A stretch of 64,000 bases of DNA. It comes from Octopus vulgaris. Its lineage: Eukaryota. Made by a program: the position numbers and the translations under genes. The stretch is taken from contig OX597821.1 in the NCBI GenBank assembly GCA_951406725.2, positions 89,776,001-89,840,000 on the forward strand, given 5' to 3'. This document shows positions 9,557 through 57,434 of this stretch, piece by piece. The stretch's first letter is position 1. Every line of letters starts with the position of its first letter. The notes beneath the pieces are model-generated. The model ran no database searches. It saw only the letters and a list, made by a program, of their open reading frames with translations, and was not told the DNA's origin.

Positions 9557-10085
9557 AAGCAAAAGTGAATAATAGAAGTATTTTTTTTATAAACTGAAAA
9601 AACTGCAAGACCCTGAGTCAGTGGTTAAAGATTCTTGCTTAGTTTGTGTGATACACACAGAAGCATCATGTCTCTTTGTCATGCAAAGCTTTAGCTGTTT
9701 TTAGGTCCAGTAAAGGGTGTTTTGTAACTCAGAGCTTCTAAATAAGAACAAGTACTTAGTCTTTATTTCATTTCAGATTACCTCTCAGGTTTGCTATCAC
9801 TAGTCTAGCTGAGTATATGTATATTGCCCATTGTGATCTAGTAATGGAAGTAGCTATGACTGTTTGCAGCTGGCAATAACTACGATGTGCTTTTATGTAC
9901 CACAAAACTGTATGAGAGTTTTTCTATCTTGGATAATATCGTAGTGTTTGTGTGTTCTAACTAAACATCTACTTTTAAGTAGTGAATATTTTACCTTTTG
10001 GTATTAATATTGCTTCTGTCACTCTCTCTCACTCTCACTCTCTCTCTCTCCACACATACACACACATATATATATATATAAAATG

Positions 10086-10358
10086 CAGTGTACATTTAAA
10101 CACATAAGGAATCCACTCATGGGATTCAACATGCTAGAAAGAACAGCTAGGTTCTATAACCACAAAATTAGTGATAAAATTTGACAGGAATGAAATGATA
10201 AAATAAAAACATTTTACCATTAGATGGTAAAATGTTTTTATTTTTTCATTTCGTTCCTGTCGAATTTTATCCTTTATTTTATGGTTATAGAACCTAGCTG
10301 TTCTTTTTAGTGTGTTGAATCCCGAGAGTGGATTCCTTATGTGTTTAAATGTACACTG
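10086..10358. repeat. Long palindrome (about 135-bp arms, 3-nt loop)
   Basis: CAGTGTACATTTAAACACATAAGGAATCC...ATTTTACCAT tag ATGGTAAAAT...GGATTCCTTATGTGTTTAAATGTACACTG. Confidence 0.95.
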
Positions 10359-10552
10359 TATGTTATGACTAATACATAGTCTTTGGACTAAATTTTTACA
10401 TGCTAGGCCACTGGAAATGAAAATTTCTATTAATTTCCATTCCCCTTTGATAAGATTAAATATATATATATATAGAACGCCATGTTGGATTCTTAGCCCC
10501 TACACGCAATTTTTTTCTCTCCTTGTTTTTCTCCTTGTTTCTTTTCTGTGTA

Positions 10553-13087: not shown

Positions 13088-13135
13088 ATTGAACTAGTAC
13101 TTTCATGCATTAAATTATGCAATCTTCAGGTTAAT
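13088..13135 (-). ncRNA. Minimal type I hammerhead motif
   Basis: AAC-CTGAAGA-tTGCAT aattta ATGCAt-GAAA-GTAC-TA-GTT; palindromic stem III. Confidence 0.7.
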
Positions 13136-13260
13136 GTAGTAGTGGTGACAGTCCTGCTTCACAATTTATATATATATTAGAAGAAATAAGATACTCAGAA
13201 ATCTGGATGGTTTTATATTTACAGATTTTTATTAATATGTCACACGTTTTCATAAATCAT

Positions 13261-18125: not shown

Positions 18126-18127
<2 letters not shown>

Positions 18128-18398
18128 CAATTGCAGCATGGAAGGTGTTTATAAGCCATTTAAGAAACACATAAAAACTGTTAGATTCACTACAACATTT
18201 AAATTTAATTTGTCATAATATTTTCGTTGCTTTGAGAACGCGACCTGTTCCCGCAGCACAAAGTTTTGTCATTGAACACGTCGCAGTTTCAAAGCAACGA
18301 AATTATTTTGACAAATTAAATTTAAATGTTGAAGTGAATCTAACGGTTTTTGTGTGTTTCTTAAATGGCTTATAAACACCTTTCATGCTGCAATTGTT
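18126..18398. repeat. Long palindrome (about 125-bp arms) within (TA)n
   Basis: AACAATTGCAGCATG...GACCTGTTC spacer GAACACGTC...CATGCTGCAATTGTT. Confidence 0.95.
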
Positions 18399-42251: not shown

Positions 42252-43518
42252 CAGGGGTTGGACAAAAATAATGGAAATACCTTAACATTTCTAACAAATT
42301 TATCTTAATATGGGGTAGGACCACTTTTGGCAGTAATTACAGCTTGAATTCTATGAGGTATGAACTCGTACAAAGTTTGAATTGTTTCCAAAGGAACTTT
42401 TTTCCATTCTTCAATTAAAACAGTCTCCAGTTCTTGTAGTGATGATGGTGGAGGATATTGACTCCTTACTTGTTTTTCTAAAATGCACCATAAATATTCT
42501 TTAGTATTGAGATCTGGGGACTGTGGTGGCCAGATAAGATGTTCAACTTCACTAGAATGTTCCTTGTACCATTCAGTAACAACTTTAGCTATGTGAATTG
42601 GTGCATTATCATCCTGCAAGATTGTGTTTCCCTCCAGAAACAGTTCCACAACCATAGGATGAATTTGATCAGATAAAATGCTTAAATAGTCTTGACTATT
42701 AATTCTGCCATGAAAGGAAACCATTGGGCTGAGAGATTTCCAAGATATAGCCCCACCAGATCATCACAGATCCTCCTCCATGTTTAACAGTTGGAATAAG
42801 GCAGGCTGAGTCAAATGCTTCTTTTGGTTGTCTCCACACGTATACTCAACCAGTGGTTGGAATTAAGGTAAAAGATAATTTGTCTAAGAAAATAACATTC
42901 TTCTACTGCTCTAGGAACCAATTCTGTAGATTTTTACTCTACTCTAAATGCTTTGCAGCATTTATTTTTGAATGTTGTTATTTTCTGATTGCAGCCCTCC
43001 TGTGAAATCTGGCTTTGTGCAGCTCCCGGTAAACAGTTTTTGAGAAACTGGGTTCCCGAAGTGGTCATTAAGCTCGGCAGGGAGCTGTACTTTTGTGATC
43101 TTTTCTAATAATTCATGTAAGAATTCGACAGTCCCTATTTGAAAGTTTTGGTTTTCTACCAGAGTTTTCTTTTGATGAGGAGCTTTTTCCCTCTTTCTCA
43201 AAGGCTGTCATTATTTTCGAGACAGTACTTCTTGTTACACCAAACATTTCGGCTGTTTTTGTTATGCTAGCACCTACCATAGGAGCACCAACATTTTGAC
43301 CTCTTTGAAAGTCAGATAGCTCTTTCCTTTTAATCAATTTTAATTACATTTTTCTGATGATATCTGAAAAGAAACAGCAATTTTAGCAAAACATATTAAG
43401 CAACACTAATAATAAATAAAAAAAACATAACAATAAACAAACTTTCGACAGTTTTATAGCTACTTCAAAATTATGATGCAATGATGCTAGGTGTTTCCAT
43501 TATTTTGTCCAACCCCTG
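42252..43518 (-). mobile_element. Full-length Tc1-like transposon with frameshifted DD36E transposase
   Basis: TA-flanked ~29-bp TIRs CAGGGGTTGGACAAAATAATGGAAA; ORF pieces ELSDFQRGQ.., GRKPKLS, LQDDNAPIH...WPPQSPDLNTKE. Confidence 0.95.
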
Positions 43519-45105: not shown

Positions 45106-45454
45106 ACGATATAGTATTGAGTAGATGACCTGCAATGCATGGGTACATATCTGTTAGTGTATTGTATATAGTATATGCTAAATGATGAGATGTTTTCTTT
45201 GGGTAGAAATGAAAGGTTAGTGCCCACCCAGGTGGATACTATATATATAAATTATCTATTCTTTTGTTCTTTTATTCTTTTACTTGTTTCAGACATCTGA
45301 CTGCGGCTATGCACACACACACACACACATGCACACACACATATACATATATAGATATTTATATAAATAAGGATAAGATCATTATTTAAAATACCGATCA
45401 TATCAAGTGGCTAGCATGGGAAATAAAAACCTCATAGGTAATAATTATCATTAG

Positions 45455-45754
45455 AATTATAATTAAGGGTATCTAAAAGATACCATCATGCTAGATATAG
45501 TAGTCAAAACTTGACTCTAAAACCACATCAAATATTCATACAGCACCAGGAGAGAAAACAATGAGACAAAATAAACTAGCAAAAAATTTTTGGATAATTC
45601 TAGATCCCGGATTTCTGGGTTTGCATAAGAAATGCTTTGTCTCATCAGTGTCTTCTATCCTGGTGCTGTATGAATATTTGATGTGGTTTTAGAGTCAAGT
45701 TTTGACTGCTATATCTAGCATGATGGTGTCTTTTAGAAACCCTTAATTATAATT
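45455..45754. repeat. Long inverted repeat (about 115-bp arms, about 65-bp spacer) within (TA)n
   Basis: AATTATAATTAAGGGT...TGAGACAAA / TTTGTCTCA...ACCCTTAATTATAATT. Confidence 0.95.
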
Positions 45755-45755
45755 T

Positions 45756-45809
<54 letters not shown>

Positions 45810-56855: not shown

Positions 56856-56893
<38 letters not shown>

Positions 56894-56901
56894 ATAGAAG
56901 G

Positions 56902-56952
56902 AGCTTCTACAGGACTAGAACTGTTTCATTCAAAAGAAATCATCAGGAAGCT
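56902..56952 (-). ncRNA. Complete type I hammerhead motif (left arm of palindrome 56890-57041)
   Basis: AGCTTC-CTGATGA-tTTC tttt GAAt-GAA-ACAG ttctagtc CTGT-A-GAAGCT. Confidence 0.8.
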
Positions 56953-56979
56953 CCTGATGATTTCAGGAAATCATCAGGA

Positions 56980-57029
56980 AGCTTCCTGATGATTTCTTTT
57001 GAATGAAACAGTTCTAGTCCTGTAGAACT
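56980..57029 (+). ncRNA. Hammerhead motif (right arm of the same palindrome)
   Basis: Same as left arm, with a 1-nt deletion in the stem I 3' strand. Confidence 0.75.
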
Positions 57030-57111
57030 CCTTCTATAAAATAAATTAATTTACTCTGCTATGTATTGAGTACCTTATTTACTGTGGTTAACCCCGACTC
57101 AACCCGGGACC

Positions 57112-57170
<59 letters not shown>

Positions 57171-57194
57171 ATGTATACATACGTACACATACAT

Positions 57195-57434
57195 TTTTTT
57201 CTGGGGAAGGCCAGCTTACAGGATTACCTTGGGTTTATTATCCATAAAGGGTTTAACTTTATGGCGTATCGTCAGACCCCAAAACCTGTTGGCCTGTGAC
57301 CTCTTCAAAAGATATATTTTGAAGAGGTCTTAGGCCGACAGGTTTTGGGGTCTGATGATAAGCCATAAAGTTAAGCCCTTTATGGACGGGAAACCCAAGG
57401 TAAGCCCATAAACCGGCCTTCTCCAGTAAAAAAA
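57195..57434. repeat. Palindrome with a hammerhead motif in each arm
   Basis: Centre CTCTTCAAAAgatataTTTTGAAGAG; arms about 115 bp. Confidence 0.9.
57347..57407 (+). ncRNA. Type I hammerhead motif
   Basis: GGGGT-CTGATGA-taag CCATAAAG ttaagcc CTTTATGG acgg-GAA-ACC caa GGT-A-AGCCC; the mirror copy at about 57220-57280 (-) has lost the G of GAAA. Confidence 0.65.

Follow-up and report, generated by a model that had tools for sequence, protein, structure and literature searches.

Hammerhead palindromes in Octopus vulgaris as probable insertion footprints of a Hydra-type Penelope-like element

The palindrome in the window

The window, meaning the whole stretch of 64,000 nucleotides of Octopus vulgaris DNA analysed here, contains two hammerhead ribozyme motifs placed back to back in a palindrome. 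This raises the question of whether such an arrangement is a unit with a function of its own, namely the self-silencing switch proposed in a first-pass annotation, or the trace left by the insertion of a mobile element.

The inverted repeat lies at 56885-57046, with 95% arm identity over 164 columns, and its perfect part consists of 48-nt arms that are 100% complementary with 27 nt between them. The folding z-score is -21 and none of 200 shuffled sequences was equally stable. The palindrome had been delimited as 56890..57041; the element goes beyond 57041 and runs on in a tail to about 57119. Since a tail extends past the plus arm and (TA)n, already remarked on as a neighbour, is found on both flanks, the whole insertion measures about 230 bp and comprises the palindrome and a one-sided tail of about 70 bp. 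In the numbering used below, +1 is the first base of hammerhead stem I, which corresponds to window position 56980 on the plus strand and to 56952 on the minus strand. The features are the following:

56862..56890, no strand: (TA)n target, left side; the same flank is found in most copies
56888..56952, minus strand: short arm, pLTR/5' UTR from +1 to +65 (the window copy is locus L007)
56902..56952, minus strand: intact type I hammerhead motif, predicted cut between 56908 and 56907
56953..56979, no strand: 27-nt junction insert found once in the genome, an extra C and a small hairpin formed by core sequence
56980..57029, plus strand: hammerhead motif in which the stem I 3' strand is one G short; cut predicted after 57024, not predicted to fold
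56980..57119, plus strand: long arm, element +1 to about +141, from arm comparison among loci
57047..57119, plus strand: tail, on one arm only, ending TACATAT; in intact elements it continues towards a start codon at +184
57115..57165, no strand: (TA)n target, right side, from the sequence

The centre opens with an extra C at the end of the left cDNA; next come 11 nt copied from the core of that cDNA, and then the reverse of this copy. The nested partial core duplications are present as originally described. The extra C is likely to be a copy of the cap or to be templated. The remainder fits a snap-back fill-in, by the reverse transcriptase (RT) or by a host repair polymerase alike. The nested centre has a single match genome-wide at no more than one mismatch. 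Any target-site duplication would be hidden inside the (TA)n flanks, and the ORF listing, taken alone, gave no clear exon around this copy.

Hammerhead motifs and predicted folding

Both arms have CUGAUGA, GAAA and GUA as well as a stem III of 4 bp capped by an 8-nt loop, and both match the type I hammerhead core (CUGANGA, GAAA, UH). The minus-arm motif has a 6-bp stem I, a weak stem II of 3 bp on a U.U pair, a 4-bp stem III and CUAG in the loop. In the plus arm the 3' strand of stem I reads GAACU instead of GAAGCU, one G being missing, and therefore only the minus arm matches in full the pattern that had been noted for both. Thus the back-to-back hammerheads are real and both cores are there, but the arms are not identical. 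The predicted plus-strand cut after A57024 was correctly placed, and the arm that carries it is the damaged one.

Folding as a monomer through the 4-bp stem III and its 8-nt loop, which the annotation had allowed, may be possible for one arm only. The minus arm alone could fold as a hammerhead, this shape being at -7.3 kcal/mol against -7.6 kcal/mol for the best fold (within 0.3), whereas the plus arm is not predicted to do so (-0.2 kcal/mol, stem I probability 0.00). Stem II has a predicted pairing probability of 0.14-0.17, and two minus-arm copies could pair through the CUAG of loop III (predicted -25.2 kcal/mol). A ribozyme and its antisense copy would indeed share one transcript, as had been pointed out: an RNA reading through the whole palindrome would, by prediction, fold at about -134 kcal/mol and bury both ribozymes. 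In the natural 200-nt 5' UTR of locus L162 (L162:4589-4790) the hammerhead is likewise predicted to be masked, here by another hairpin, with a stem I probability of 0.001. The G10.1-C11.1 pair is absent and replaced by U.U, which is invariant in 190 arms. Subfamily variation sits in N7 and both loops and spares the stems. An Rfam scan of the whole window gave no match at the gathering score. The hammerhead of the stub would be a passenger.

The variant of stem I without the G has 34 exact matches in the genome compared with 1,277 for the form with G. It is commoner outside promoter-bearing arms (32/947 stub arms versus 2/364, p = 0.003) and may be a mutation or an assembly or consensus error. 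The appearance that half of the copies carry one G-less arm, suggestive of a flip-flop signal, was dismissed as query bias in view of the genome-wide counts.

A family of stubs with variable centres

The 2.8-Gb genome contains 1,643 exact matches to a 26-nt core of the motif and none to the reversed control. The junction counts given here come from the first 100 listed matches, on one contig and in one subfamily, while variant counts at +61 and +18 also take in 30 loci ranked by BLAST. Among these first 100 matches, divergent core pairs lie from a few bases to several kb apart. Of 33 short palindromes, 31 carry the tail on one arm only and none carries it on both. Their centres are 1-38 nt long; perfect joins centred on AGCT are common, and nested centres also occur in L075, L086 and L095 (3/33). 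Since centres differ among copies and the centre in the window is unique, the palindromes have not been copied as units, and each was likely made anew at its insertion. Lacking a promoter, a stub is likely a dead end.

The two arms also have characteristic limits. In 59/73 pairs the short arm stops between +65 and +68, and long arms stop near +140, both ends being AT-rich and merging with the target. At the other end, it is the short arm that extends further 5', by 5 nt or more, in 13/52 unbiased pairs and the long arm in 12/52; in L122, for instance, the long arm begins at +70 and the short arm at +1. The arms of a copy agree at the variable site +61 in 56/57 cases (shuffled mean 42.5; 0/20,000) and at +18 in 60/61. 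Moreover, single arms joined to unrelated DNA at +1/+2 were found in L083, L109, L117, L144 and L160.

The 5' end of the element

The 100 core-bearing arms examined begin at +1 in 34 cases, at +2 in 15 (including one mis-scored long copy) and at +3 to +7 in 23. No arm begins in the 6 nt upstream of +1, and the other 28 run further upstream. Counted by locus, the furthest reach is +1/+2 in 34/41 palindromes. A TATAAA begins 29 nt before +1 in seven of eight upstream variants, the eighth being duplicated. From the sequence we infer that the TATA box of the pLTR starts transcription at +1 and that the RNA is capped.

A G precedes 14/24 of the junctions not explained by the partner arm, against a background of 25/120. 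After removal by hand of five doubtful rows (three A and two G, resembling mismatched partner sequence) the extra G remains in 12/19, p = 0.0015 against 0.28, and it occurs at junctions of short arms too. Rather than being a copy of the cap, the extra G may have been templated by the 3' strand of stem I, where the next base would place a G ahead of +1; three clear cases of G before +2 are not explained in this way. The AGCT at +1, itself a 4-nt palindrome, favours joining there. A splice acceptor at +1/+2 was considered and rejected, since apart from one G no constant exon precedes the junction.

Of 30 tailed copies, 10 start at +1 and none at +46, the position of the cut. These copies were chosen by a motif just after the cut site, and two seeming late starts are indels in arms that continue. 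The absence of starts at +46 says nothing on the cleavage of RNAs that go uncopied. Contigs of four putative RNA runs have loose ends at +1, at the short end and at the tail end, which shows boundaries rather than transcription.

The parent element

Between the cores of long pairs lie the remains of an RT/GIY-YIG-type ORF and a 3' UTR rich in microsatellites; the inverted arms of these copies measure 100-1,400 bp, and there is a continuum from short stubs to inverted copies of several kb. Of 11 loci retrieved for their long open frames, two (L162 and L163) are pLTR-ORF-pLTR tandems, in which a TATA box is followed in order by the hammerhead, the tail, the ORF beginning with its start codon and, downstream, a pLTR. 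In L162, which measures 4,782 bp from tail to tail, the frame begins at +184 and encodes 713 aa. The protein contains RWR (38), DKT (116), the RT motif YRDD (347), a CxCX5C linker (567), a C-terminal endonuclease (EN) of the GIY-YIG type with YIGMT (603), and CxxC (667) and CxH (695) around the end of the EN, whereas GxKF/Y is absent. Pfam gave no RT or GIY-YIG match in this protein; by eye it aligns with Hydra PLE proteins in the supplement of PMC8557442. It has 1,116 database relatives at E <= 1e-20, the best mostly near 40% identity. Insertions of the family are in (TA)n, and the parent element is present in 20 of the 24 listed sequencing runs (10 studies, four organism labels). Judged by its sequence, the parent is a Hydra-type EN+ Penelope-like retrotransposon, intact in the Octopus vulgaris genome.

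The search with GIY-YIG also gave a family of 781-aa proteins, which was discarded as it is without the hammerhead of the window; a weak 33-bp match inside its ORF was taken as chance. This is a young RT + GIY-YIG PLE family with many intact frames (L061:906-4587, L062, L065, L066), a separate upstream ORF of 330-480 aa and no canonical hammerhead by pattern search.

Proposed mechanism and alternative explanations

We therefore return to the origin of the palindrome. With a probability of about 70%, we propose that it is a minimal insertion of the Hydra-type PLE, made of head-to-head copies of the 5' part of the transcript (65 + 141 bases) for which one capped, uncleaved RNA was reverse-transcribed from both cut ends of (TA)n. 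In this scheme transcription from the pLTR promoter would give a capped RNA whose first base, +1, is also that of the hammerhead, and the GIY-YIG endonuclease would cut both strands of (TA)n. Each target 3' end would anneal to an AT-rich internal site of the RNA, one at about +66 and the other at about +140, and both cDNAs would be extended on the same uncleaved RNA up to the cap. Their ends would be joined via AGCT microhomology or short templated fill-ins, the join of the window copy being the 27-nt snap-back patch. Stubs would result when priming takes place in the 5' pLTR, and long copies with extended inverted arms when it takes place in the 3' pLTR. In L1 twin priming two cDNAs copy different parts of the RNA. 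The octopus stub would resemble it in having two primings on one RNA, with the difference that the octopus cDNAs overlap and thus give a palindrome.

The agreement of both arms at +61 and +18 indicates one RNA as template, the absence of starts at +46 in 30 tailed copies indicates that it was uncleaved, and the fact that either arm may reach further 5' indicates two primings. On the other hand, gene conversion, or synthesis of one arm on the other, could likewise make the arms agree, and later deletions at palindrome centres could mimic the asymmetry in 5' reach.

The same parent could also have produced the palindrome from one tail-primed cDNA that reaches the 5' end of the RNA, snaps back and copies itself into the short arm, later deletions blurring the centre. 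Variants shared between arms, the common perfect joins centred on AGCT and the nested centres, which in the window copy and in 3/33 others read as snap-back synthesis, would all be expected. We nevertheless consider it unlikely, as the short arm would then have to start downstream of the 5' reach of the long arm, while the reverse is seen in 13/52 pairs such as L122, and the extra G is found at short-arm junctions as well. The suggestion of the first-pass annotation that fold-back during reverse transcription made the nested centre is accordingly retained as far as reverse transcription and a snap-back centre are concerned, but fold-back of a single cDNA cannot explain those 13 copies. Self-priming on an antisense PLE transcript, the published proposal for rotifer Penelope palindromes (PMC3846280), accounts for the head-to-head polarity; it predicts neither junctions 29 nt after a sense TATA box nor the extra G, nor the single arms joined to unrelated DNA at +1/+2, and we hold it to be very unlikely.

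It is also highly improbable that the palindrome is a non-autonomous element, MITE-like or retrozyme-like, which moves as a unit and whose antisense arm silences the ribozyme. Simple AGCT-centred copies do look alike and the whole RNA is predicted to be a very stable hairpin, but centres vary and that of the window is unique, no TATA box is kept, the arms are inverted without the direct tandem repeats of a non-LTR retrozyme, no fixed internal sequence common to copies of the kind shared by MITEs was found, and stubs grade into inverted copies of several kb. The lost TATA box together with the unique and variable centres likewise speaks against a self-silencing switch as function. The chance of an assembly artefact is close to negligible: although none of the contigs from four runs spans the centre of the window copy, and the enrichment of the missing G in stub arms is maybe a consensus error, contigs from these other public runs pass from the antisense into the sense arm, at centres that vary, and the anatomy is consistent over dozens of loci. 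The palindrome of the window is thus real and not a stand-alone switch, and its hairpin is a by-product of insertion; taken singly it is an ordinary insertion scar, yet a useful mechanistic footprint.

If the proposed double priming is extended beyond this family, the inverted ends of PLEs in general would arise on capped, uncleaved sense RNA, stubs would be full-length 5' copies, and the hammerhead would sit exactly at the transcription start, where its cleavage would turn the message off; we give this wider proposal even odds. Were it true, cleavage would remove the cap and 45 bases and be a possible off-switch. In the literature consulted no statement of double priming for Penelope-like elements was found.

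Comparison with known elements

The shape of the stub is already known, inverted pLTRs, palindromic junctions and one-sided tails being in print (PMC3846280, PMC8557442); what the stubs give are testable clues to PLE insertion. According to Craig et al. 2021 (PMC8557442) the Hydra clade groups C-terminal EN+ PLEs, including Hydra-1_Obim, with units generally under 3 kb. The octopus parent resembles it in RWR (RWK in print), DKT, the lack of GxKF/Y, the CxCX5C linker, the CxxC and CxH around the EN end, the (TA)n target and a hammerhead in the pLTR, and the U.U at the base of stem II is shared with several listed Hydra hammerheads (PMC8557442). By eye, the protein and hammerhead of Hydra-1_Obim differ from those of the octopus parent, and the loop of stem III has 8 nt compared to 1-3 nt in the Hydra rows compared (PMC8557442). 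The octopus unit, of about 4.8 kb, exceeds the 3 kb that is a tendency of the clade because of its long microsatellite-rich 3' UTR.

A head-to-head inverted 5' copy, a palindromic junction and a tail on one end were also described by Arkhipova et al. 2013 (PMC3846280). The octopus stub differs in consisting of two ends only and in having a longer tail (about 70 nt against 30-40), and where that paper favoured antisense self-priming, the octopus junctions map to a likely capped sense start. The formation of tandem and inverted PLE ends is described as open in PMC3846280, PMC8557442 and PMC11167929. In vitro, the anole Poseidon element PAc cuts and extends both strands of an AT-rich target, its RT starts at two internal sites bounding the tail, and unprocessed RNA is used without need of the hammerhead (Frangieh et al. 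2024, PMC11167929). PAc belongs to another clade and its ORF starts inside the hammerhead, whereas the octopus ORF starts at +184. An untemplated G at the 5' ends of full-length L1 and SVA has been attributed to copying of the cap (PMC3287187). The promoter of Drosophila Penelope is internal and TATA-less (PMC2377424), unlike our reading of a TATA box upstream of +1.

Type I motifs in pLTRs were reported by Cervera and de la Pena 2014 (PMC4209133), including opposite-strand pairs 100-700 bp apart in Schistosoma. In comparison with these minimal PLE hammerheads the octopus motif has a longer stem III, could fold alone and is without the G10.1-C11.1 pair.

With over a thousand ends and intact parents, this young family offers predictions at base level (a start at +1, a cap G, priming at about +66 and +140, and an uncleaved template), which are testable with the existing in vitro assay (PMC11167929). 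Moreover, the stubs seed hundreds of perfect hairpins in the genome, a possible source of dsRNA when read through.

Other features

A second, older family of hammerhead palindromes is represented in the same (TA)n tract at 57194-57433, with a tail to about 57495 and 85% arm identity; a first look gave 1,363 candidates. Its centres precede the core by 16-43 nt, and by 34-38 nt in 4/8 palindromes, which indicates that the junction follows a fixed upstream point and not the edge of the ribozyme. A third hammerhead motif is found at about 13090-13140 on the minus strand of the window, and also at L034:2377 and L068:5721. Its stem II has U.U at the base, its stem III is a palindromic GTAC, and similar copies lie downstream of a GIY-YIG match.

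Palindromes of 270-310 bp with 82-89% arm identity and without a canonical hammerhead core occupy 10078-10366, 18126-18398 and 45452-45757 of the window. The long insertion in L103 (G000:C1:22942000-22947200) has about 295 bp of its host flank present in inverted orientation on either side. Tail matches at G000:C1:57292188, 57300271 and 57308409, about 8.1 kb apart, suggest a segmental tandem duplication carrying a stub. Finally, a 151-aa frame at 42305-42760 on the minus strand of the window looks by eye like a fragment of a Tc1/mariner transposase.
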